Below, piece after piece: positions 7,950 through 20,992 of a stretch of 64,000 bases of DNA. This stretch comes from Trueperaceae bacterium (GTDB lineage: Bacteria > Deinococcota > Deinococci > Deinococcales > Trueperaceae), in NCBI GenBank assembly GCA_965215565.1, contig CBDCDZ010000004.1:4329474-4393473 (forward strand), in the 5' to 3' direction. Under the pieces are notes generated by a model. It was not told where the DNA came from, ran no database searches, and saw only the letters and a list, made by a program, of their open reading frames with translations. Every line of letters begins with the position of its first letter. Position 1 is the stretch's first letter. The position numbers were made by a program, and so were the translations under genes.

Positions 7950-8915
7950 ATGACCCAGCGAGGCGCGATCACCAAAGCGAGACGTTTAGCGAGCCTACCC
8001 GAACTCCTCGAGCGAAAACCGCGCACGACCACCGAACTTGCTGAACTTTTTGGCGTTCCGAGGCGTACAGTTCAGCGCGACTTAGAGACGCTGCGTGAGG
8101 AAGGCTACGAGATTGACAGCCCTGCGCGCGGCCTCTACCTCATCCCCTCCAACCCCTCGAGTCTCAACGCCGTCGAAGCGCTCGCCGTCCACGCCGCCAC
8201 CAGGCTCCTCTACCACCACGCCCCAGCACGCAACCCGCACTACCGCTCCGCTTTAGAAAAGCTCGCCTCCTTGCTACCAGAACCGGCGCGAGGCGTCGCG
8301 CTGAGCAGCGTAGAGGCGCTGGGTGAGCGCCCTCCCGACGACAGGGCGCTCGAGCTTGCCGCTCAAGCGTGGTTCGAAGGGCGCGTGCTCGGGTTCGAGT
8401 ATCTCTCGCCGAGCGGCTCGGGCAAGTGGCGCGCTAAAGCGCTAGAGATTTATATGATCGAGATCAACCGGGCCAACCTCGCCCCCTACGCCATCGGTTT
8501 CGAGCGCAGCTTTCACAAAAGGATACTCACCTGGAAGCTCTCGCGAATGCGCAACACGCGCCTACTTGGAGACACCTACACCATCCCTCAGAACTTCGAT
8601 CCGAGGGACTACTTAGAGACCGCTTGGGGTGTCATCGGCACCAGTGGCGGAGAGACCGTAGCCGTGAAGTTGCGCTTCGCACCCGAGGCCGCTCACCGCT
8701 TACGTGAAGGCGGCTACCCGAACATGAGCATCGAGCGGGAACTAGCCGACGGCGCTTTAGAGGTCTCCATCCAGGCTGGCACGAACGACGAAGGGTTCCC
8801 CTTAGAGCTTCTCCCCTGGGTGCAGAGTTGGGGTCCGCGCGTCGAGGTGCTAGAACCCGCGAACTTGCGCGAACGCTGGTTAGAGGAGGCCCGGCGCGTC
8901 GCTGGGGTATACTAG
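7950..8915 (+). CDS. HTH-WYL-WCX transcriptional regulator (YafY/PafBC-like), CRISPR-adjacent
   Basis: N-terminal wHTH (ELAELFGVPRRTVQRDL), WYL region (WKLSRM), C-terminal WGPRVEVLEPANLR. Confidence 0.9.
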   Translation: MTQRGAITKARRLASLPELLERKPRTTTELAELFGVPRRTVQRDLETLREEGYEIDSPARGLYLIPSNPSSLNAVEALAVHAATRLLYHHAPARNPHYRSALEKLASLLPEPARGVALSSVEALGERPPDDRALELAAQAWFEGRVLGFEYLSPSGSGKWRAKALEIYMIEINRANLAPYAIGFERSFHKRILTWKLSRMRNTRLLGDTYTIPQNFDPRDYLETAWGVIGTSGGETVAVKLRFAPEAAHRLREGGYPNMSIERELADGALEVSIQAGTNDEGFPLELLPWVQSWGPRVEVLEPANLRERWLEEARRVAGVY

Positions 8916-8916
8916 G

Positions 8917-9029
8917 TAGCAGGTATCATCTGGTTTGAGACGCTCCCACTTTGAAGAACACGCTCTAGCACGCACGTTCAGAGATGATATCTGCGGCACT
9001 TTGTCTCAGTATGTCGTGGAACTGCTGTA
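8917..9029 (+). mobile_element. MITE-like repeat, family A copy
   Basis: TAGCAGGTATCATCTGGTTTGAG...GGAACTGCTGTA. Confidence 0.8.
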
Positions 9030-9114
9030 GATAGCGCATGTTCGTGAGGACGTTGACAACTCATGCTCGAGACTTAGAAGGGGTAAAACGCTAGTTTTGC
9101 CGTCTGGGTCTAGT
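9030..9114 (+). promoter_or_regulatory. CRISPR array 1 leader
   Basis: AAAACGCTAGTTTTGCCGTCTGGGTCTAGT nearly identical to the sequence before array 2. Confidence 0.8.
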
Positions 9115-9691
9115 CTATTCCCCACGTGTGTGGGGATGAACCGCGAGCATCGCCAAACGCAAAGAGTACATCAAACTATTCCCCACGTGTGTGGGGATGA
9201 ACCCACTGGGCAGAGTTGCCCCGTGAGACGTTGCAACTATTCCCCACGTGTGTGGGGATGAACCGCTCGACAAGGCGCGTTCACAGTCGTTAAGAGACTA
9301 TTCCCCACGTGTGTGGGGATGAACCGAACTTAGCCGCGTCGGTCTGCTCGTAAGCGTCCTATTCCCCACGTGTGTGGGGATGAACCGTAACGAGCTGAGC
9401 GATTTACTATATTGCATTGCTATTCCCCACGTGTGTGGGGATGAACCGCTGGCTGTTTCACAGCAAACTAGGATACGCGACTATTCCCCACGTGTGTGGG
9501 GATGAACCGCGGCGTGCTGCGCCTGGACACCTCGAACGTCACTATTCCCCACGTGTGTGGGGATGAACCGAGGTTTACCTCAAGTTAGCGCAGGTTAGCG
9601 AACTATTCCCCGCGTGTGTGGGGATGAACCGTATCAGTGGACAACGCTCAGCCAATATATTCCCTATCCCCACGTGTGTGGGGATGAACCG
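9115..9691 (+). CRISPR. Type I-E CRISPR array 1: 10 repeats, 9 spacers of 32 nt
   Basis: Repeat CTATTCCCCACGTGTGTGGGGATGAACCG, 61-nt period; R2 ends in C, R9 has A>G, R10 lacks one T. Confidence 0.98.
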
Positions 9692-9774
9692 GGTCATTTC
9701 CCATATGGAATTGTCACCCTCTGGGGTATAGTAAAGAAGTGTAACACGCACGACACTCACCCAAAGGAGCAACT

Positions 9775-10119
9775 ATGTCCGAACCGACCGCCAACACCAA
9801 CTTCAGTGACACCGAACGTCGCGCCCTTATCCTCGAGGGCGCGACGGGTGAAATGAGCAAACGACTCGACGACATTCACGCTGATATTAAAGAGCTGCGT
9901 GGCAGCGCCCGCGACGACAACCGTGAGCTACGCGCTGACATCAAGACAAACGCTGAGGCGACCCAGGCGGCTTTACTCAACGTTCAAACCAACATCATTG
10001 ACGTACAAAAGAGCGTGATTAGCGTGCAGAACAGCATTAACCTAATGACGTGGCGACTGCTCGGCGGCGTGTTGCTTCTACTCATCGTCAACGGCATCAT
10101 TGACCGGGTGTTTTCATGA
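9775..10119 (+). CDS. Coiled-coil protein with C-terminal TM helix (DUF1640/XhlA-like architecture)
   Basis: AAGGAG RBS; heptad pattern; hydrophobic C-terminus WRLLGGVLLLLIVNGII. Confidence 0.75.
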   Translation: MSEPTANTNFSDTERRALILEGATGEMSKRLDDIHADIKELRGSARDDNRELRADIKTNAEATQAALLNVQTNIIDVQKSVISVQNSINLMTWRLLGGVLLLLIVNGIIDRVFS

Positions 10120-10403
10120 ACGCACCTAACTCTTCCCCCGCGTCTGCGGCTAGCGGGAGCGTCCACGCGACAGAGGTGAACCCCTTACGCATACGCGAAA
10201 AGCTCGGCTTGTCGCAGAGTCAATTTGCTGAACTACTTAGCGTGAGTAAGAAAACCTTGCAGAATTGGGAGCAGGAGGTCCGCGCCCCATCCGGTCCAGC
10301 GCTGTCACTTCTTAAACTCGTTGCCGCCGACCCGAAACACGCCGCGCGAACGTTAGGCTCCGCAGAATCCGGCTTTGCCGGTTCGTTAGGGGTGAAGCGG
10401 TGA
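10116..10403 (+). CDS. XRE-family HTH protein (HigA/NadS-like)
   Basis: IREKLGLSQSQFAELLSVSKKTLQNWEQ..R.PSGPA..LL; ATGA overlap with upstream ORF. Confidence 0.9.
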   Translation: MNAPNSSPASAASGSVHATEVNPLRIREKLGLSQSQFAELLSVSKKTLQNWEQEVRAPSGPALSLLKLVAADPKHAARTLGSAESGFAGSLGVKR

Positions 10404-10816
10404 AAGGGTTGAGGGCATTTTTAGCAGCGCTTTTGTGTGTTCTTTTGGGCGCGTGCGGTGAGGTGGACATCGACACAGGTTAGAGCATAGGTTAAGGCTG
10501 AAAGCCTCAGCATCTGAGATGCTCACCTGTGTTCAAAGGCTCTTAGCCTTCACCTGTGCAACCCACTACCGAGGAGTACCGGGCGCTGCTCACAGGTGAA
10601 TGCTGAGAGCGTCCGGCAGTCGCCGTAACCTGTGAGCGCCGCCTTATAGACGGCTACACGCTGCACGACGTGTATCAAGTGACGGCGGGTGAGCAGGTGA
10701 CGGCTAAGAGCCGAGCTGAGCTTTGCTCTAACCTGTGCGAGCAAGACCTCATCGAGCCGGATGGCGTCATCGTGGGCCTATTCCCCACGTGTGTGGGGAT
10801 GAACCGGAGAAAATGA
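10400..10816 (+). pseudogene. Lipoprotein-like gene with five in-frame stops
   Basis: GTG start overlapping HTH stop; MKGLRAFLAALLCVLLGAC lipobox; stops at 10481, 10493, 10499, 10544, 10604, then frame open to TGA 10814. Confidence 0.5.
10778..10806 (+). CRISPR. Solitary perfect array-1-type repeat
   Basis: Exact CTATTCCCCACGTGTGTGGGGATGAACCG. Confidence 0.97.
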
Positions 10817-11022
10817 TGGATGACATGAAACCGGTAACGAGCATGGCTGACGTTCCCGACTTCTCTACAGATGAGGAAGAGCAAGCGTTCTGGGCGACGC
10901 ATTACATCGGCGACGATGTGCTCGTCACTCCGCGCGAACTGTCTGACCAGCCGCTTCCTCCCCCGCGTCCACGCAGGGTTGAATCCAAGCGTATCTCGCT
11001 CACGCTCGAGCCAAGTGAATGA
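10813..11022 (+). pseudogene. CopG/BrnA-type antitoxin, C-terminally truncated
   Basis: VPDFSTDEEEQAFWATH and SKRISLTL motifs; RHH helices missing, MKYQ-like remnant just downstream. Confidence 0.7.
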
Positions 11023-11092
11023 AATATCAGCAACGCTGCTGACCTCCCATCGCCATTGACCTCATAATCTAAGGGCGGCAGAAGGCAGCTTC

Positions 11093-11680
11093 TCAAATAT
11101 CCGCTAGAATTTTCTCAGCTAACTGCTTGGCAACCTTCTCTTTCGCTTCCTCTTCTCGCCGCGCTTTGTCGTACTTCGCTGCTCTGACCTCGAGCTTCTC
11201 GCCCAATATGCGGAGGGCGCGTTCAGGTTTCATAAAGGGATTGAGCACGAAGCTGTACGTCCGCTTCCGCTGCCGGTCAATGGCTAAAATTTGATAATGT
11301 TTTGGACTTAGCAGCGCAGCGAGTTCAAAGCGTCCCATGCGCTCTGCTGCGATAATCTGCGAGTCTTTGAGCTTGTTCTCTAAGTCCCAACGGCTAAGTT
11401 CACGGTCACTACCAAATGTCGGACGCATTCCGAGGATATTCCACAAAAAGGGGATGCCGAATGATGCTAGGAAAGAGAGTCCAAGAGAGAGCGGTAAAAC
11501 ACCGACTCTCTGCCAAAATTCGCTACCCCACACGATAAGCGCAGTGCCAAGGACTGCCGTCGCAATAAACGTATACATTGCCCAGACTGGCAAGTAAGCC
11601 TCCCCTCTAATAGCAGCGTTGAACCGCTTGTGCCACGGTGCTTTGTCTATTAGTAGGTCTCTAAACAATGTATCTGACAT
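11093..11680 (-). CDS. Two-TM hypothetical protein divergent from cas3
   Basis: AGGAGG RBS before ATG 11680; two hydrophobic helices; charged helical C-terminus. Confidence 0.7.
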   Translation of the reverse strand: MSDTLFRDLLIDKAPWHKRFNAAIRGEAYLPVWAMYTFIATAVLGTALIVWGSEFWQRVGVLPLSLGLSFLASFGIPFLWNILGMRPTFGSDRELSRWDLENKLKDSQIIAAERMGRFELAALLSPKHYQILAIDRQRKRTYSFVLNPFMKPERALRILGEKLEVRAAKYDKARREEEAKEKVAKQLAEKILADI

Positions 11681-11808
11681 GCACGTCCTCCTATTGCAGA
11701 TGATAACGAAGTGCTGAACCCTTATTATCGCATATTGCGCTTGGTGAGTGAGGGGCGCGTCAGCTATTACGAGGCACAGTACGAGCGAGCGATTGCAAGA
11801 TTTTACTT

Positions 11809-11841
11809 GCGTCACCAATTGACGTTAGAGCGTGATATATC
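11809..11841 (+). promoter_or_regulatory. Palindromic operator + -10 of cas3 (GCGTCA-N5-TGACGT-N10-TATATC)
   Basis: Motif shared with the cas8e upstream region; ATG 6 nt after the -10-like hexamer. Confidence 0.6.
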
Positions 11842-11847
11842 TGTTTC

Positions 11848-14592
11848 ATGCCTAAGTTGAGCCAACGAGCACAGAGCTTCTGGGCGAAGAGCCCTAAAAA
11901 AGGTGAGCCGTTCGAGTCCCACCCCGTTATCGCTCACCTCTTGGACGTAGCCGCGAGTGCGTCCGAAATTCTGAAACTCGAGCCCGAGAAGATAACTGCT
12001 CTGTACGCCGGTGACTTCAAGCTGTGCGAAAGTGAGGCTGCCCTTTGGGTTTGCGCTCTGGCAGGGTTGCATGACCTTGGCAAAGTGAGCCCAGCGTTTC
12101 AGCAACTCTGGACTCCGGGGTTGGAGAAACTTATTTCGGTTGCTCCCGAGTTTGATTGGCATACTACCGACTCGCTTGCCCCTTCGTCCCCACCAGGCTA
12201 CGTTTCTCACAGTGTAGTCAGCCAGGTCATACTGCCTAGCTTGCTGAAAGCAAAAGGCTTTCAGGGTACGTTAGCAAAGGGCGTTGCGGACGCTGTCGGC
12301 TGTCACCACGGGTTTCGAGCAGATGGTCAAGAACTCGGTGAGGCGTGTAAAAAGAAAGAGAAGGGACGCGAGGTCTGGGACGACGCGCGTGAAGAGATAT
12401 TCAGAGCAGTATTAGAGGTCGTTGGCGTTACGGATAGCCCCGAGGTGAAAAAACTAAGCGCAGCAGGCTTTATGCGCCTTGCGGGTCTAACGAGCTTTGC
12501 AGATTGGATCGGCTCGAGCCTCTATCCCTCACTAAGCTTCGTCGGGTATGAGAATGACCTGGAAGGTTACTACGAAGAGGCGAAGGTGGCAGCGCGACAT
12601 AGGTTAGCTGAATTGGGTTGGACAAAGCGTACGCCTCTACACACGGACGCGCGACTACTGGAGGATACCTTCGCTTATCTCACTCGTGAAGAAGGCAAGC
12701 CGTTCTCGCCGCGCACGCTCCAGACAGAAGTCGAGAAGCTGTTGAGGGAGGTCTCCGCGCCAACCCTTCTACTCATCGAAGCGCCGATGGGCGAAGGTAA
12801 AACGGAGGCTGCATTCTACGCGCACCTGCGCCTGCAAACCGAACTCGGTCACAGAGGGATGTACGTGGCGCTGCCCACGATGGCAACCGGAAACGCGATG
12901 TTCAGCCGGACGGCTGAGTTCTTGAACGAGCAAGCCGAGGGACGGACGGTTCCGCTCGACTTGCAGCTTTTGCACGGGGCGACGCAGCTCAATAGTGTCT
13001 ATCAAGCGCTTCAGAGCGAAGTGCGTCCTAACTTTCCCGATGAAGAGAAGCTCGAGCACGTCCAAGCGAGAGAGTTCTTCACGCACAAGAAGCAAGCCCT
13101 TCTTTCGGAGTATGGCGTCGGCACGGTGGACCAGGCGCTACTGACCATTTTGAACATTCGGCATCAGTTCGTGAGGCTGTGGGGTCTCGGCAACCGCGTC
13201 GTCATCATCGACGAGGTTCACGCTTACGACACCTACACCTCAGAACTCGTGAATGGACTCGTGCGCTGGCTCCACGCACTCGGCTCGAGCGTCGTTTTAC
13301 TGAGCGCGACCCTCTCCGAGAAATCTCGTAACGAGTTGCTCGAGGCTTACGGCGGGGAGGCAAAAGAGACCGAAGGCTATCCGCGCATCTTCAAAGTTGC
13401 TGCTGGTGAAACCGAAGTCTTTCCGTTCGACGCCGAATCTAAGCGTAAGGTCGAGATAGCTGTCCATCACCTCGCCGCAGATTTGGACACCATCGTTCGG
13501 CTGTTGGAGGATAAGCTCGCAAAAGGTGGTTGCGCAGTCTGCATTGTCAACACGGTAAACCGGGCGCAAGAGCTTTATAAGAAGCTCGGGGGGAAAGATA
13601 CGTACCTCTTTCACGCCCGCTATCCTGCCGAAGAACGCGCTGAGATTGAGACTCATATCTTAGAGACGTTTGGCAAAGCAGCAACGAGGGAGAACGGCAA
13701 GCGCCCGCACCGCGCTATCCTTATCGCCACCCAAGTCGTAGAGCAGTCGCTCGACCTCGACTTCGACCTCATGGTCACAGACTTAGCACCAGTGGACCTC
13801 ATTATCCAACGGGCAGGGCGCATGTGGCGGCACGAGCGCCCGTCGTCAGAGCGCCCTATCTCTGAGCCACAGCTCTTCATCGCGGGCATGGAGCATGAGG
13901 GAGAGCTGCCGGAGTTGTCACGCTATTTTTGGGACAGGGTCTATCAGCCTTTTATCCTCTACAAAACCTGGGACGTGCTGCAAGGTAAAACTCAGCTCAC
14001 GCTGCCCACTGATATTGACGACCTTGTGCAGCGCGTTTATGACGGTGATAGTGAACCGCTCCAAGCGAGGCTTTCAGAAGAGGCGTTTGAGCAAGCTGAA
14101 GAAAATCAGCGCAAGTTCGTGGAGGAGCGAAAGGCTGATAAAAGCCTCGCACGTGAAGCAATCATCAGTCAGGTGAGGAAGAACGGTGAGCTTGCGCTAC
14201 GCGACCCGACCAGAGTTAGAGAAGAAGAGGACAAACCGAATGGACTGCCAGCCGTTTTTACGCGCAAAGGGCAACCCTCAGTGCTCGCCGTTCCCCTCTT
14301 TGAGCGCGGCGGTGAATACTTCTTGGATGCCGAAGCAAAAAAGCCCTATGACGCTAAAAAGCCGCTCGAGACCTATAAACGCTCCGTCCGCCTGAGCAGG
14401 CGCGGGTTTCCTCAAGCACTTGAGAAGCACAATGCGGCGCAGGGATTTGAAGAGACTTTTAAGCACTGGGAGAAGAACCCGCTTTTGCAAAACTGCGTTC
14501 CACTTGTGCTAGATACGGATGGAAGCGTTGTCGTGGGTCAAACGAGAGTAAGACTGGATAGCGTTTTAGGCGTGGTGTATGAAAGCGCCTAA
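11848..14592 (+). CDS. cas3: CRISPR helicase/nuclease Cas3
   Basis: HD domain (HLLDV, HDLGK, HHG, ADWIGS), APMGEGKT, DEVH, QRAGRMWRH. Confidence 0.97.
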   Translation: MPKLSQRAQSFWAKSPKKGEPFESHPVIAHLLDVAASASEILKLEPEKITALYAGDFKLCESEAALWVCALAGLHDLGKVSPAFQQLWTPGLEKLISVAPEFDWHTTDSLAPSSPPGYVSHSVVSQVILPSLLKAKGFQGTLAKGVADAVGCHHGFRADGQELGEACKKKEKGREVWDDAREEIFRAVLEVVGVTDSPEVKKLSAAGFMRLAGLTSFADWIGSSLYPSLSFVGYENDLEGYYEEAKVAARHRLAELGWTKRTPLHTDARLLEDTFAYLTREEGKPFSPRTLQTEVEKLLREVSAPTLLLIEAPMGEGKTEAAFYAHLRLQTELGHRGMYVALPTMATGNAMFSRTAEFLNEQAEGRTVPLDLQLLHGATQLNSVYQALQSEVRPNFPDEEKLEHVQAREFFTHKKQALLSEYGVGTVDQALLTILNIRHQFVRLWGLGNRVVIIDEVHAYDTYTSELVNGLVRWLHALGSSVVLLSATLSEKSRNELLEAYGGEAKETEGYPRIFKVAAGETEVFPFDAESKRKVEIAVHHLAADLDTIVRLLEDKLAKGGCAVCIVNTVNRAQELYKKLGGKDTYLFHARYPAEERAEIETHILETFGKAATRENGKRPHRAILIATQVVEQSLDLDFDLMVTDLAPVDLIIQRAGRMWRHERPSSERPISEPQLFIAGMEHEGELPELSRYFWDRVYQPFILYKTWDVLQGKTQLTLPTDIDDLVQRVYDGDSEPLQARLSEEAFEQAEENQRKFVEERKADKSLAREAIISQVRKNGELALRDPTRVREEEDKPNGLPAVFTRKGQPSVLAVPLFERGGEYFLDAEAKKPYDAKKPLETYKRSVRLSRRGFPQALEKHNAAQGFEETFKHWEKNPLLQNCVPLVLDTDGSVVVGQTRVRLDSVLGVVYESA

Positions 14593-14614
14593 ATGCTTAC
14601 TTGTCTATCCTCTG

Positions 14615-14647
14615 GCGTCACTAAATGACGCTTCACCATATTAAAGT
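14615..14647 (+). promoter_or_regulatory. Palindromic operator + -10 of Cascade operon (GCGTCA-N5-TGACGC-N10-TAAAGT)
   Basis: Perfect 6-bp inverted repeat and TANNNT. Confidence 0.65.
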
Positions 14648-14668
14648 GAGTTGAAGGAGGACCAAACA

Positions 14669-16285
14669 TTGGCTACGTTCAACCTCATTACAAAACCTTG
14701 TATTCCTGTACGAGTAAATGGAAAACTCGAGCACTACTCCCTCGAACAAACGCTTTTGGACGCGAAAGACATTGAGCGCATAGAGGACGCCTCTCCTCTC
14801 GTTGTAGTCGCGCTGCACCGGCTTCTGCTCGCCATTCTCTACCGCGCCCTCAACCCTGACAGCACTGAAGAGATTGGGGAGTGGCTCGAGGACGGCTTTC
14901 CAGAGGAGGGCATACGCACCTACTTGGAGAAGTGGAAACCTCACTTCGATTTGTTTGATGCGAAACGCCCTTTTTATCAGGTAGCAGACCTCGAGCAAGC
15001 TACCTTCGGCAAGCCGATTGAGCCGAAAGCCTGGACCGAACTCGCGCCCGAGGTGCGTGACGGCGGTCAGGGGGCGTCGCTCTTCAACCATCTTAACGAA
15101 GTTGCAGAGCCGATTCCTGCCGCCACAGCGTTTCACCAACTGCTCGTCCGTCAGACCTTTGCGCTAGGCGGGCTTAGCAGAACTTTCGTAGATTCGGCGA
15201 AGAATGCCCCTTCCCCAAACGCAGTCTTTCTCATACCACATGGGCAGAATTTACACGAAACACTCTGTTATTGTCTCGACCCTAACAACTACACACACCA
15301 TGAGGACGACGTGCCATTCTGGGAGCGCAATACAGCTTATGATGTCGCTTACCTAGAAAGGACAAGAGAAGAGCCGGTTTTAGGCTGTGTTCAAGTGTAT
15401 ACCTGGATGAGCCGCTCAGTGAAGCTCATCCCGCTCGAGACGGACGATGGTCCTTATGTTGAGGAAATCTACTTTGCCTCCGGCATCGCGCCGAAGTTCG
15501 AAATCGCTCAGTATTTCGACCCGATGGTTGGAAAGAGAGTTAAGTCCGGTAAAACCGAGAATAGCCTTACCTTTATTCGCTTCGATGGAAATAAGCAATT
15601 CTGGCGAGACTTCCAATCGCTATTCGCTGAACAGCAAACAGGTATAGCACCACGTGTAATTAGCCTATCTGCCCGCCTAGCATCTGAGTTCAACCGTAAT
15701 GTGAATCTCGGCGTTTACGGCATCAATAACAAGCAGGCAAAAGTAAACTTTGCGCGACAAGAAAACCACATTCTTCCCGAGGCTGTTAGCGCTGATAGGA
15801 CAGAAGATGTTTATGCCACGCTTGCAAACTCGCTCACGCAAACGGACAAGCTGGGGTATTCGCTAAGAAAAGCAATCTTTGAAATACATATTCACCTTGA
15901 CCCCGAGCTTCGGATTAAAGATAAGAAGAAGCGAGAGGAATTCTGGCGAAAGGTCAACGCTCCACCTCCTCCTAAAGAGAATCCTACGATTACTCGGTTG
16001 AGAACGGCAGTGAATACATCCTACGGAGTTAGTTTTTATTGGTCTACACTGAGCCGTCTCTTTCCAGAGTTATTGGACCAGCTCACCGCTGACTTCAAAC
16101 CCAAAGAAGTCCAACGTTATTGGGCGCAGAGACTCCTAGATGCTTCTGACCGCGCCTGGACGCTCGCCCGCGCCGCCGCTGGCGACGACGCCTACGCCCT
16201 CCGCGCCATCTACTCTGCCGAAGGCATCCTACGCGCCGCGCAGAGCGAGTTTCGCACTCTCACTACATCTCAGGAGGCAGCATGA
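14669..16285 (+). CDS. cas8e: Type I-E Cas8e (Cse1/CasA)
   Basis: FNLITKPCIPV, ALHRLLLAIL, FDLFD..RPFYQ; AGGAGG before TTG 14669. Confidence 0.92.
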   Translation: MATFNLITKPCIPVRVNGKLEHYSLEQTLLDAKDIERIEDASPLVVVALHRLLLAILYRALNPDSTEEIGEWLEDGFPEEGIRTYLEKWKPHFDLFDAKRPFYQVADLEQATFGKPIEPKAWTELAPEVRDGGQGASLFNHLNEVAEPIPAATAFHQLLVRQTFALGGLSRTFVDSAKNAPSPNAVFLIPHGQNLHETLCYCLDPNNYTHHEDDVPFWERNTAYDVAYLERTREEPVLGCVQVYTWMSRSVKLIPLETDDGPYVEEIYFASGIAPKFEIAQYFDPMVGKRVKSGKTENSLTFIRFDGNKQFWRDFQSLFAEQQTGIAPRVISLSARLASEFNRNVNLGVYGINNKQAKVNFARQENHILPEAVSADRTEDVYATLANSLTQTDKLGYSLRKAIFEIHIHLDPELRIKDKKKREEFWRKVNAPPPPKENPTITRLRTAVNTSYGVSFYWSTLSRLFPELLDQLTADFKPKEVQRYWAQRLLDASDRAWTLARAAAGDDAYALRAIYSAEGILRAAQSEFRTLTTSQEAA

Positions 16286-16826
16286 GCGAGAAGACGGACA
16301 GGTTCATCTCTTACTTATGGAAGCTAGACCGCAAAGCCTTCGCCGAGCTGCGGCGCAGCCTCAGCGACGAACCGGGGCGCTCTATCCCTGCGATTCCTTA
16401 CGTAGAGCGCTTCACCCTCGGTGAGCGCCGCTGGAATCAGCAGATGTACTACTTAGTGGCGGGGCTCTTTTGCCTTGTGGAGCGCCCGCTCGAGCAGAGT
16501 GCAACACCGCCCCCACCGCGCCAACAGAGCTTCGGCAGCAGCGTTGGAAGGCTCTACGTTCTTAAAGAGAAAAGCGCCAGCACCGAACGCCGCTTTATCC
16601 GGCTGCTCGACGCCGACGCGGGACAGCTCGCCGAGCGGCTTCGCCAGATGGTGTCTTTGCTGCGCTCCGAAGGCGTCGAAGTCGGTTGGTCGCGGCTTTT
16701 GAACGACCTGCTTTACTGGCACGCCGACGACTGCAACATCCAGCACCGCTGGGCTCGAGAGTTTTACATGCAAGAAGCCAAGAGCGAAAGAGCATCCGAA
16801 ACGGAAGAAGTGACAGGAGGAACCGC

Positions 16827-16830
<4 letters not shown>
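16282..16830 (+). CDS. cse2: Type I-E Cas11 (Cse2/CasB)
   Basis: AELRRSL, ERRFIRLLDAD, LL.DLL.W, WAREFY. Confidence 0.92.
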
Positions 16831-17965
<1,135 letters not shown>

Positions 17966-17969
<4 letters not shown>

Positions 17970-18598
17970 CGCACACGCTGTTACTTTGCTTGGCGGGTCC
18001 GCTCCAGTCGTGGGGCACGAAGTCCCGCTTCGACGAACGCGACACCGAACTCGAGCCCTCGAAAAGCGGCGTAATCGGGCTCTTATGTGCGGCGCTCGGC
18101 GTTGATCGGCACGAGGCGGAACCCGTTCTAAAGCTTGCCGAGATGCCGATGGGCGTTCGCGTTGACCGCGAGGGGGTGTTGCAGCGCGACTATCACACTG
18201 CTCAGAGAATTGACTATAGCGGTAGGGTGCGAGATACAGTCGTCTCGCACCGCTACTTCCTTTCGGACGCCGTTTTTCTCGTAGGTTTTGAGAGTGAGGA
18301 TAGAAGTTTTCTCGCGGAGGTACAAGCGGCTTTGAAGAATCCACACTGGTCTCTTAGCCTCGGGCGCAAGTCTTTTGTGCCGTCACGCCCGATTTGGTTG
18401 TCCGACGGTCTTGTTCAGAAGAGCTTGGACGATGCCTTATGTCAGTATCCAAATCTCACGAACGAAGAGCCAGTGCGCTTAGTGCTCGAGAGTTCACGCG
18501 GCTCACTACGAACAGACCAGCCGCTCTCGAGCTTTCATGAGCGCCGTTTCGGTACGCGCTATGTTACGAGTGAGCCGTGGAGCCACCCATGTACTTGA
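17966..18598 (+). CDS. cas5e: Type I-E Cas5 (CasD)
   Basis: LAGPLQSWG...PSKSGVIGLLCAALG, LGRKS. Confidence 0.95.
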
Positions 18599-19314
18599 GC
18601 AAACTCGTCTTAAACCCTCGTGCTCATCAAGTACGCCGCGATCTCACCAACCCCTACCAGACCCACGCCAGCCTCTGCTGGGCGTTTCGCAAACCTGAAG
18701 CGCTCTCAGAAGCCGAAACTGGAAGCTGGGAACGCGGCAAAACCGTGTATCCCTTTTTGTGGCGCTTGGAGCCGCCCCAGCCTCGCGCTGCACCAATCCT
18801 CTTAGTTCAGAGCGAAGTGGAACCTCAGTGGGACGTTTTCGCCGAGCGACACCCAAACTACTTTAGCCGAAAGGTCAAGGTAGGTAAGCTTCCCCTCGAG
18901 CACCTTGTACAGGGTCAAACCCTGCGCTTCCGTCTCAAAGCTAACCCGACCGTCACCAAGCGGCACGATGACCAACCCGATAAGCAGAAGCGCGTCGGGC
19001 TCTACAAGATGGAGGATTTACTCGGCTACCGGAGTGATAACGGCGAATGGATACTTGGCTGGATTGAGCGGCAGAGCGACTTTGGCACAGAGCAGCGCGG
19101 CTTCGTGGTCGGCGCACAGGACGTTATTTTGCGCAACACCGAGCGCTTGCGTTTTCATAAACATGAAGGAGGTCATCCCATCACCTTGCAGTCCGCGCTC
19201 TTCGACGGCTACTTGAAGATTACCGACGTAGACCTATTCAAAGAGACGCTCGCTAAGGGCGTCGGCAAAGCCAAAGGGCTCGGCTTCGGTCTCCTCTCGG
19301 TTGCGAGAGCCTGA
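18589..19314 (+). CDS. cas6e: Type I-E Cas6e (Cse3/CasE)
   Basis: MYLSKLVLN, FRLKANP, C-terminal GVGKAKGLGFGLL. Confidence 0.95.
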   Translation: MYLSKLVLNPRAHQVRRDLTNPYQTHASLCWAFRKPEALSEAETGSWERGKTVYPFLWRLEPPQPRAAPILLVQSEVEPQWDVFAERHPNYFSRKVKVGKLPLEHLVQGQTLRFRLKANPTVTKRHDDQPDKQKRVGLYKMEDLLGYRSDNGEWILGWIERQSDFGTEQRGFVVGAQDVILRNTERLRFHKHEGGHPITLQSALFDGYLKITDVDLFKETLAKGVGKAKGLGFGLLSVARA

Positions 19315-20297
19315 TGCCCTCCTTACGCAACCTCCGCGAACTCCCCAAATTCCGCGACGGTCTCTCGTACCTCTACATCGAGCGCGGACGCATCGAGCAA
19401 GACGCTAAAGCCATCGCCTGGTACGGCGAAGAGGGCAAGGTGAGCGTACCCGCCGCCGCGCTGGGCGTCTTGATGCTCGGTCCCGGCACCAGCATCACCC
19501 ACGAAGCCGTGAAAGCCTTGGCGGATAACGGCTGCTTCATCAACTGGGTTGGCGAGGACAGCGTGCGCTTTTACGCGGGCGGCACAGGCGAGACGCGCAG
19601 CAGCGCCAACCTCATGCGCCAAGCGGAGTACTGGGCGGATAGTGGCAAACACCTTCAGGTAGTGCGGCGCATGTATGAGATGCGTTTTGAGGGTGGGTTA
19701 GAACCGGGGCTCACCCTCGAGCAGATTCGCGGCAAAGAGGGCGTGCGGGTGCGCACCATCTACGCCCAGATGAGTAAGGAGACCGGCGTCCCCTGGCACG
19801 GGCGCAGCTACAAACGCGGTGCTTGGGGCAGCGCTGACCCTATCAACCGCGCCCTCTCCGCCGGAGCCGCTTGCGTCTACGGCGTTTGCCACGCCGCTAT
19901 CGTTTCAGCAGGCTACAGCCCCGCACTTGGCTTTATCCACACAGGCAAGCAACTCTCCTTCGTCTACGACATCGCCGACCTCTACAAGATGGAGGTGCTC
20001 GTACCCGCCGCCTTTAGACTCGTCGCCGAGTCAGACGAGCACGTAGAGAGCCGCGTTCGGCATCACCTTAGAGACGCCATGCGCGAGGCGCGGATGTTGG
20101 AGCGCGTCGTGAGCGACCTGCACAGCCTTTTCAGCAGCGACGCCGAGAGTAATGAACGCTTTGCCGAGGACGGCGCAGCACCGGGTGAGCTGTGGGACCC
20201 GAGCGGCAACGTGGAAGGAGGGGTGAGCTATGGTGGTGATGACGCTCGAGAAAGTACCGACGAGCCTACGCGGAGAACTGAGCCGCTGGATGGTTGA
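19314..20297 (+). CDS. cas1: Type I-E Cas1
   Basis: LMLGPGTSITHEA, RGKEGVRVR, LGFIHTG..LSFVYDIADLYK. Confidence 0.97.
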   Translation: MPSLRNLRELPKFRDGLSYLYIERGRIEQDAKAIAWYGEEGKVSVPAAALGVLMLGPGTSITHEAVKALADNGCFINWVGEDSVRFYAGGTGETRSSANLMRQAEYWADSGKHLQVVRRMYEMRFEGGLEPGLTLEQIRGKEGVRVRTIYAQMSKETGVPWHGRSYKRGAWGSADPINRALSAGAACVYGVCHAAIVSAGYSPALGFIHTGKQLSFVYDIADLYKMEVLVPAAFRLVAESDEHVESRVRHHLRDAMREARMLERVVSDLHSLFSSDAESNERFAEDGAAPGELWDPSGNVEGGVSYGGDDARESTDEPTRRTEPLDG

Positions 20298-20583
20298 AGT
20301 TTCGACAGGCGTCTACGTCGGCAAACTGAGCGCTTTGGTGCGCGACCTCTTGTGGGAAAAGGTCACGAAGAGCAAACGCACCGGGCGCTGTTGTCAGGTC
20401 TACCGCACCAACACCGAACAAGGGTTTGCCATTCGCATGGACGGCGACTCGGAAAGGAGTGTCGTTGACCTGGACGGGTTATACTTAGTGGCAGTGAAAA
20501 ACGCGGCGTGGGAAAAGATGTTTGTTGAACCTGCCGAGGACCATGACAGACCCGATGGAGACATAGAGGGGTCAAAACGCTAG
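20230..20583 (+). CDS. cas2: Type I-E Cas2
   Basis: MVVMTLEKVPTSLRGELSRWMVEVSTGVYVG, EQGF, DLDGL. Confidence 0.95.
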   Translation: MVVMTLEKVPTSLRGELSRWMVEVSTGVYVGKLSALVRDLLWEKVTKSKRTGRCCQVYRTNTEQGFAIRMDGDSERSVVDLDGLYLVAVKNAAWEKMFVEPAEDHDRPDGDIEGSKR

Positions 20584-20603: not shown

Positions 20604-20992
20604 CTATTCCCCACAGGCGTGGGGATGAACCGAACCAATGGTGCGAATAGGCTCAACTATTCCCCACAGGCGTGGGGATGAACCGACACCGTGTGCGAAG
20701 AAACGGTGCATGATTTCCTATTCCCCACAGGCGTGGGGATGAACCGTATAGACACTCGGACCCAAGCGGCGAAACATGCCCTATTCCCCACAGGCGTGGG
20801 GATGAACCGAGATGGATACATCCAACTGGCACATTCAGGACCTATTCCCCACAGGCGTGGGGATGAACCGCCTCTCTCTTCACCTTCAGTTTTTTGGCTA
20901 GCCTATTCCCCACAGGCGTGGGGATGAACCGTAGAACTCGTCGATTTGCCCGATGTCCTTGCCCTATTCCCCACAGGCGTGGGGATGAACCG
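20604..20992 (+). CRISPR. Type I-E CRISPR array 2: 7 repeats, 6 spacers (24, 32, 34, 32, 32, 32 nt)
   Basis: Repeat CTATTCCCCACAGGCGTGGGGATGAACCG. Confidence 0.98.

Follow-up and report, generated by a model that had tools for sequence, protein, structure and literature searches.

A conserved operator-promoter unit before cas3 and cas8e in Deinococci, most likely read by a DriD-type WYL activator

The organization of a type I-E CRISPR locus was analyzed in a window of 64,000 nucleotides from a Trueperaceae bacterium (contig CBDCDZ010000004.1, positions 4,329,474 to 4,393,473, forward strand). The locus is complete, i.e. it contains cas3, cas8e, cas11, cas7, cas5, cas6e, cas1 and cas2 together with two repeat arrays. 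A gene for a predicted transcription factor, made of a wHTH (winged helix-turn-helix), a WYL and a WCX domain, lies 2.9 kb from cas3, with array 1 and small genes in between. We focus on two short palindromes, called operators below, which precede cas3 and cas8e. Coordinates in the list are those of the window:
7950..8915, + strand: wHTH-WYL-WCX transcription factor gene, 321 amino acids (aa) (Pfam HTH_11, WYL, WCX)
9115..9691, + strand: CRISPR array 1, 10 repeats with a 61-nt period
10778: orphan CRISPR repeat, companion of array 1
11810..11824, + strand: operator 1, palindrome CGTCA-CCAAT-TGACG, predicted to cover -38 to -24 of the cas3 promoter
11836..11841, + strand: -10-like hexamer TATATC, 6 nt 5' of the cas3 ATG; the mRNA is predicted to be leaderless
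11848..14592, + strand: cas3, HD nuclease-helicase, 914 aa
14616..14630, + strand: operator 2, palindrome CGTCA-CTAAA-TGACG, inside the 76-bp gap between cas3 and cas8e
14642..14660, + strand: -10 hexamer TAAAGT (14642-14647) and Shine-Dalgarno-like AAGGAGG (14654-14660), as read from the sequence
14669..20583, + strand: type I-E operon cas8e-cas11-cas7-cas5-cas6e-cas1-cas2
20604..20992, + strand: CRISPR array 2, 7 repeats
The more likely start of cas8e is the TTG at 14669, which stands behind AAGGAGG and is favoured over 14651. Transcription is predicted to begin at ~11848, on the A of the cas3 ATG, and at ~14654, some 7 nt past the cas8e -10.

The original prediction had described GCGTCA-CCAAT-TGACGT-N10-TATATC before cas3 (11809-11841), GCGTCA-CTAAA-TGACGC-N10-TAAAGT before cas8e (14615-14647) and an HTH-WYL-WCX gene at 7950. 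Both elements are present at these positions, and the gene is borne out by Pfam matches to its three domains. The sites share a 15-bp core, CGTCA-N5-TGACG, which is separated in both cases by 11 nt from the -10-like hexamer. Within the 4.49-Mb genome RCGTCA-N5-TGACGY occurs three times, twice at these cas operators, and palindromes of the same half-sites with other spacer lengths (2-4, 6-9) occur 0-5 times each. The looser pattern CGWCA-N5-TGWCG is found 11 times (~1.5e-4 per 60-bp stretch), and TA occupies the -10 position in only two of these 11 matches, the cas3 and cas8e operators. The last T of TANNNT is missing from the cas3 hexamer TATATC; this hexamer is identical in a genome of the same genus, where the core of operator 1 is also unchanged although Cas3 is 48% identical. 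The cas3 and cas8e genes of that genome overlap, and the second site is absent there. No exact copy of the operator was found between 8916 and 11809, and none was detected ahead of array 1. An ordinary -35 reading of TTGACG was rejected, the hexamer being 11 nt from the -10 instead of 16-18 nt, and a sigma-70 scan called a promoter at neither operator.

A matrix scan of the genome placed operator 2 as the best-scoring site. The top sites consist of the two cas operators, a site between a SiwR-like gene and dinB (see below), and sites without a fitting downstream gene, including the next-best ones at 3807095, 3524641 and 3393141. A genome-wide regulon was rejected: 15 sites exceed 13 bits, compared with 13-55 when the matrix is permuted. 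Behind the inspected top-scoring sites we observed no recA/recJ-type or other DNA-repair target, scores below ~18 being those of the permuted-matrix background, and no SOS-independent DNA-damage regulon such as defines DriD proper emerged from the genome scan. The regulon of the cas-linked WYL protein looks local.

Conservation of the sites was then examined in Deinococci. At E<=1e-30 the WYL protein is matched in 202 of the 364 genomes of the class, and 80 loci were taken from the top of this list (seven were skipped, mostly at contig ends), the selection being made on protein similarity and not on the motif. A site was defined as NGWCA-N5-TGWCN (at most one mismatch) followed, after 11 nt, by a hexamer whose second base is A and whose first or sixth base is T; this rule was derived from the published DdaA motif and applied to 175 nt around each gene start. 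Four loci recognized as not type I-E were excluded, the window was included, and one cas3 row comes from an unpublished genome (G324), on which none of the conclusions rests. Since related genomes are not independent, the counts that follow do not constitute a statistical test. The WYL gene lies directly 5' of cas3 in 48 of the 80 relative loci. Among the WYL-linked loci, a site is found 5' of cas3 in 44/61 and 5' of cas8e in 31/56, and at least one of the two is present in 50/61. The same rule gives 0/54 for each of the control genes cas7, cas5 and cas6e, 2/51 for cas1 and 3/81 for the WYL gene itself. The motif proposed for this locus is thus conserved upstream of orthologous cas3 and cas8e genes. 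On these sequence comparisons the two elements represent a real, conserved operator-promoter unit. Autoregulation was considered and rejected, the site fronting the WYL gene in only these three loci and not in the window.

The anatomy of the promoters was analyzed on 63 unique sites, chosen on the palindrome alone. The fixed distance from site to -10 box that had been predicted holds across this set: NANNNT is found at offset 11 in 56 of the 63 sites, and in at most 8 of them at any other offset from 6 to 17. No -35 box is present at normal spacing: at 16-18 nt, each of the 63 sites departs from TTGACA in three or more positions. In 37 of 39 cas3 sites the start codon lies 5-8 nt past the hexamer, which agrees with a leaderless mRNA; a Shine-Dalgarno-like word follows 19 of 27 cas8e sites. 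A second operator exists in 28 of 34 tandem loci whose cas3-cas8e gap exceeds 25 nt; for coupled genes the figure is 2 of 13. This operator occurs where there is space for a second promoter. Conservation is equal in the two half-sites, the core G and C reaching ~2 bits in either one. Weak -10 boxes are numerous (e.g. CACACT, GAAGGT and TATATC).

To which class the WYL protein belongs was addressed by sequence and by predicted structure. In a profile search with the WYL family, DriD was matched with E 3e-17 and PafBC with 2.5e-11, and there was no CapW/BrxR entry among the 32 profile matches at E<=1. The predicted structure (mean predicted local distance difference test score 89.6) has three helices at 74-126, which form a helical bundle; wHTH, helical bundle, WYL and WCX are thus combined in a single gene, as in DriD. 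The best Foldseek match of this structure is again DriD (9e-17, template modelling score (TM) 0.54), followed by PafBC (3e-14), with CapW/BrxR at 2e-7 to 1e-6 (TM ~0.3). Across an alignment of 63 homologues, R39, R43, Y180, K196 and R199 do not vary. The DriD residues R37, R41, Y168, R189, Y192 and R207 correspond to R39, R43, Y151, R174, Y180 and K196, which are conserved in 61-63 of the 63. Y151, R161, R174, Y180, W195 and K196 match the contacts of DriD with single-stranded DNA (ssDNA). Y180 is surrounded by APYAIG, and the RWHVR motif of CapW/BrxR is absent. NCBIfam returned no specific family for this protein, and a protein search of the genome contigs returned one locus. The original prediction of an activator-class protein, unlike BrxR/CapW, is upheld by these comparisons: DriD stands nearest to the cas-linked WYL protein in sequence and modelled fold, with CapW/BrxR remote from it.

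Concerning the protein that reads the sites, the clearest situation is that of five complete Thermus-like genomes. All 10 composite matches (one of them read on both strands) fall at cas3/cas8e operators, compared with none for the reversed control, and the cas-linked gene is the only PF13280 (WYL) match in four of the five. A second clue comes from the residue that aligns with DriD Glu40, which is reported to contact the outer C of the half-site (PMC10853764). With E at this residue the outer bases are retained in 79 of 80 half-sites, with Q in 43 of 48 and with L in 9 of 18. This covariation is suggestive of the cas-linked protein as the reader. In the Trueperaceae genome a single WYL gene is present at the locus, the other WYL matches lying far from it. 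One of these matches, at C4:2105879 (L002), is a SiwR-like WYL gene which shares one bidirectional palindrome with a divergent dinB, with 11 nt to the -10 on both strands; this layout recurs in many Deinococcus-like genomes.

The same reading can be followed in the genetic model Thermus thermophilus HB8. Its plasmid pTT27 (NC_006462.1, 257 kb) contains only two exact palindromes, before cas3 and casA; this count is used alone, because the HB8 matrix score is not independent of the training set. The HB8 homologue, TTH_RS10940 (WP_011229118.1), is probably TTHB186, as judged from gene order since TTHB187 is Cas3. In a microarray table (PMC7662524), TTHB186 is given as a putative regulator, a separate operon begins with TTHB188, and expression of TTHB187-194 goes up in parallel with that of TTHB186. 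Phage is described as inducing the HB8 type I-E genes by CRP-dependent and CRP-independent routes, induction persisting without crp, and the factor behind the CRP-independent route is left unnamed there (review PMC3497052). A different element, ending in TCACA, stands before the HB8 WYL gene itself and not before cas3 or casA. This element is a putative CRP site. A wider CRISPR regulon in HB8 was rejected, no site being present on pTT27 before the type III-A, the type III-B or the second type I operon, or before Argonaute. Argonaute as the source of ssDNA was likewise rejected: CRISPR genes devoid of the site are lowered in the ago knockout along with TTHB187-194, according to PMC4229858. A study of strain HB27 held no information about the operator. 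Elsewhere on NC_006462.1 (~230345-230365, L138), the interval from cas4 to a second, distant WYL gene contains a palindrome of another kind, GGTGACA-N6-TGTCACC; it is possibly the operator of this second HB8 WYL protein (24% identical). In a literature search that left most subscription journals outside, we found no characterization of TTHB186 or of this operator in Deinococcota. The present analysis bears on whether and by what means type I-E interference is turned on in infected cells outside E. coli: it names a candidate activator, two operators and predicted starts for a circuit conserved across Deinococci, HB8 included.

The family and its site are not restricted to type I-E systems. They also front type I-C and I-B-like operons, as well as an operon in which a tetratricopeptide repeat (TPR) protein of ~550 aa precedes the WYL gene (L091:7596-9302, L129:12454-14112, L067:10327-11937), in many cases followed by cas3 or another type I cas gene; this TPR-WYL operon is fronted by the same operator as cas3/cas8e. 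Seventeen of the 150 best family representatives are longer than 1000 aa, and in 16 of them WYL is fused to Cas3. WYL-Cas3 fusions are seen in L040:9468-13154, L041, L109, L110 and L114 (proteins P0014-P0143), with sizes of ~1220 aa in type I-E and ~1080 aa in type I-C. In L040 and L041 the operator, the -10 and the leaderless cas3 start all lie within the fused reading frame, so both fused and free Cas3 could be made. The fusions support a tight functional link between WYL protein and Cas3 and motivate a positive-feedback reading, which we put forward as a tentative possibility. The ssDNA pieces made by Cas3 as it shreds a target would be the ligand of the WYL protein, which would in turn raise Cas3, Cascade and Cas1-Cas2; the fusions would be a tethered form, and in HB8 the loop would supply the unexplained CRP-independent route. 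If true, interference would amplify itself and primed acquisition.

Taken together, the sites, their fixed spacing, the missing -35, the conservation, the activator-class fold and the conserved base-reading arginines are legible in the sequence or its predicted structure. From them we infer binding by this WYL protein, activation, and ssDNA as the signal, and consider with good confidence that a cas-dedicated WYL activator of the DriD type reads the conserved operator-promoter unit. Both palindromes would be operators of the protein encoded at 7950, which would work as a DriD-type homodimer. This homodimer would bind short ssDNA, arising from phage replication, DNA damage or degradation by Cas3, and in the bound state would recruit RNA polymerase to the two promoters without -35, i.e. 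those of cas3 and of the Cascade-cas1-cas2 operon. Several observations weigh against such a dedicated activator. The site is absent in 11/61 WYL-linked loci and in 5/9 unlinked type I-E loci of genomes with the WYL gene elsewhere (4/9 have one), and it is present in 2/7 type I-E loci from genomes where no full-length family member was found (one genome is 87% complete, and in another the contig ends inside cas3). Two ssDNA-contact positions differ from DriD: L193 takes the place of the base-stacking R204, which is R in 44 of the 63 homologues, and I229 aligns with Y240. The E/Q/L covariation follows clades, with very few independent changes. In HB8, the rise of TTHB187 with TTHB186 could be read-through. 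The motif is moreover common to class A WYL proteins: the strict pattern is found in 177 of the 364 genomes of the class (reversed control, 38/364), and among the first 30 class-wide loci 14 adjoin a SiwR-like WYL gene and only one precedes cas3. The SiwR-like paralogue of the present genome has the same RTVQR helix and its own site, so that cross-talk is possible in this genome.

These last points are the substance of an alternative in which the operators are activating, are read mainly or equally by the SiwR-like paralogue beside dinB, and make cas expression follow general genotoxic stress. Its bidirectional site has the same core and the same 11-nt spacing, SiwR-like loci make up many of the class-wide matches, and sites remain in two of the seven type I-E loci from genomes without the cas-linked family. 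We nevertheless give it only a slender chance, four of the five Thermus-like genomes having sites and no other WYL match, and the cas-linked gene adjoining cas3 in 48/80 loci or being fused to it in others. Scarcely more credit is given to a repressor acting on -10-only promoters and released by ssDNA, in the manner of CapW and BrxR. Deinococcus-Thermus promoters can indeed function with a -10 box alone, and a dimer at -38 to -24 would overlap the polymerase footprint; CapW too senses ssDNA and controls defence genes (PMC11662680). However, a repressor needs no single exact spacing, yet 56 of 63 sites share one; many of the -10 boxes are weak, and the protein is distant from CapW/BrxR by sequence, fold and the surroundings of Y180. 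An unrelated regulator such as CRP, or chance, is very improbable as the origin of the palindrome. Up-regulation of the type I-E genes of T. thermophilus by CRP has been reported, but the TCACA element of HB8 precedes neither cas3 nor casA, chance is excluded by the control genes and the reversed patterns, and the motif equals WYL motifs established by experiment in published work.

A more serious competitor, which we still regard as unlikely, overlaps the DriD-type activator in all but one step: activation would proceed by a PafBC-style sigma adaptation, with one HTH on the DNA and the other on sigma region 4, or the ligand would not be ssDNA. The proximal half-site falls at the PafBC -26 position, several Thermus sites match TGTCGG-N10-TANNNT exactly, and sigma adaptation is proposed in the literature for SiwR, which is homodimeric and depends on the -26 region; the two divergent contact positions would suit another ligand. 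On the other side, PafBC motifs are described as non-palindromic, whereas both half-sites are here equally conserved, which points to both HTH domains being on DNA as in DriD. The original prediction had likened the geometry to that of PafBC. The spacing stands, tGTCgg-N10-tA-N3-T having the same distance, but it does not single out PafBC, for DriD promoters also have 11 nt. This shared spacing is a mark of the activator class, DriD being indicated by the symmetry of the palindrome; with a full palindrome and a single WYL gene, a homodimeric DriD recruiting polymerase fits better than PafBC sigma adaptation.

Other features of the window and of the genome were noted. The interval between array 1 and cas3 (9775-11680) contains small genes, including a coiled-coil membrane-anchored open reading frame (ORF), an HTH_3 gene and, divergent from cas3, a predicted membrane protein of 195 aa without Pfam match, which is 67% identical to its counterpart in the same-genus genome. 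At 677-2870 lie a spore photoproduct lyase family gene (Pfam) and then a second ORF resembling radical S-adenosylmethionine enzymes; the operator was not found 5' of this pair. The best other matches of the window's 15 spacers reach 18-24 bases, the background level, and self-targeting was rejected. Outside the window, at L116:5887-15531 (C4 ~1548900-1558500), we observed a candidate type I-E CRISPR-associated Tn7-like transposon (CAST). It contains TnsA, a TnsB-like gene interrupted by an insertion, TniB/TnsC, a split cas8e/cas11, cas7, cas5, cas6e, a mini-array of two repeats and TniQ in convergent orientation; the 20-kb locus gave no match to cas3 or cas1. For the single spacer of the mini-array, the best other genome match (23/32) lies within the 5' portion of the flanking ruvC, at a distance of ~950 bp. 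This identity alone is at the background level of 18-24 seen for other spacers; the position of the match in the flanking ruvC suggests a homing guide. The telomeric type I-E CAST described in Streptomyces has TnsBC and cas3, unlike this element, and the TniQ query gave no match in 127 other genomes of the family.

Among known systems, DriD of Caulobacter crescentus (PDB 8TP8, 9PFQ) is the best match in sequence and fold and shares the wHTH, helical bundle, WYL and WCX layout. It also shares the CGWC-N7-GWCG palindrome, the RxxxR reading helix, 11 nt to the -10 and promoters without -35: R39 and R43 are present in 63/63 homologues, and both window sites fit CGXC-N7-GXCG. In the DriD promoters of PMC13004042 the 11 nt separate the GTCG half-site of the palindrome from the -10, a CAANNT box, and the site overlaps the missing -35, DriD recruiting polymerase. 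Identity to the window protein is ~25%, R204 and Y240 are not matched, and DriD controls a DNA-damage regulon (didA, bapE, recJ, dnaG) whereas the sites of the window protein are at cas promoters and its gene is tied or fused to cas3. DdaA of Moraxellaceae is an activator that binds CGWCA-N5-TGWCG, the very motif of the window sites (PMC12392091, PMC13010146). It is reported to activate the type I-F CRISPR-Cas system in Acinetobacter, where it raises cas transcription and is required for full interference (PMC12392091), i.e. WYL activation of CRISPR-Cas through this motif is already published. DdaA differs as a global replacement for SOS, and according to its authors the motif lies ~50 bp upstream of the start site; our prediction for the present sites is -38 to -24. 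The comparison with DdaA covers motif and role; the words 'Deinococc', 'Thermus' and 'Truepera' are absent from one supplementary file of PMC12392091. Mycobacterial PafBC shares the GTCG/GACG half-site 11 nt before TANNNT, ssDNA-gated activation and RxxxR base readout. It differs in being a heterodimer that works by sigma adaptation from one non-palindromic -26 element, whereas the -26 spacing of the window sites belongs to a full palindrome, and one gene, not a pafB/pafC tandem, is present at the locus. SiwR of Mycobacterium smegmatis locally activates neighbouring genes as a homodimer, and the -26 region is part of its palindrome; SiwR targets dinB-like genes, for which this genome has a separate SiwR-like locus. 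CapW and BrxR are likewise ssDNA-sensing WYL regulators beside defence operons, but they are repressors, of which the window protein has neither the RWHVR motif nor a sequence-profile match or close fold. Further sources for comparison are PMC10693628, PMC8635444, PMC3084264, PMC4406477 and bioRxiv 2024.11.13.623437. The comparison suggests that DriD, PafBC, SiwR-like proteins and the cas-linked WYL family have one promoter geometry in common, and that the window protein most likely works like DriD and DdaA rather than like PafBC or CapW/BrxR.

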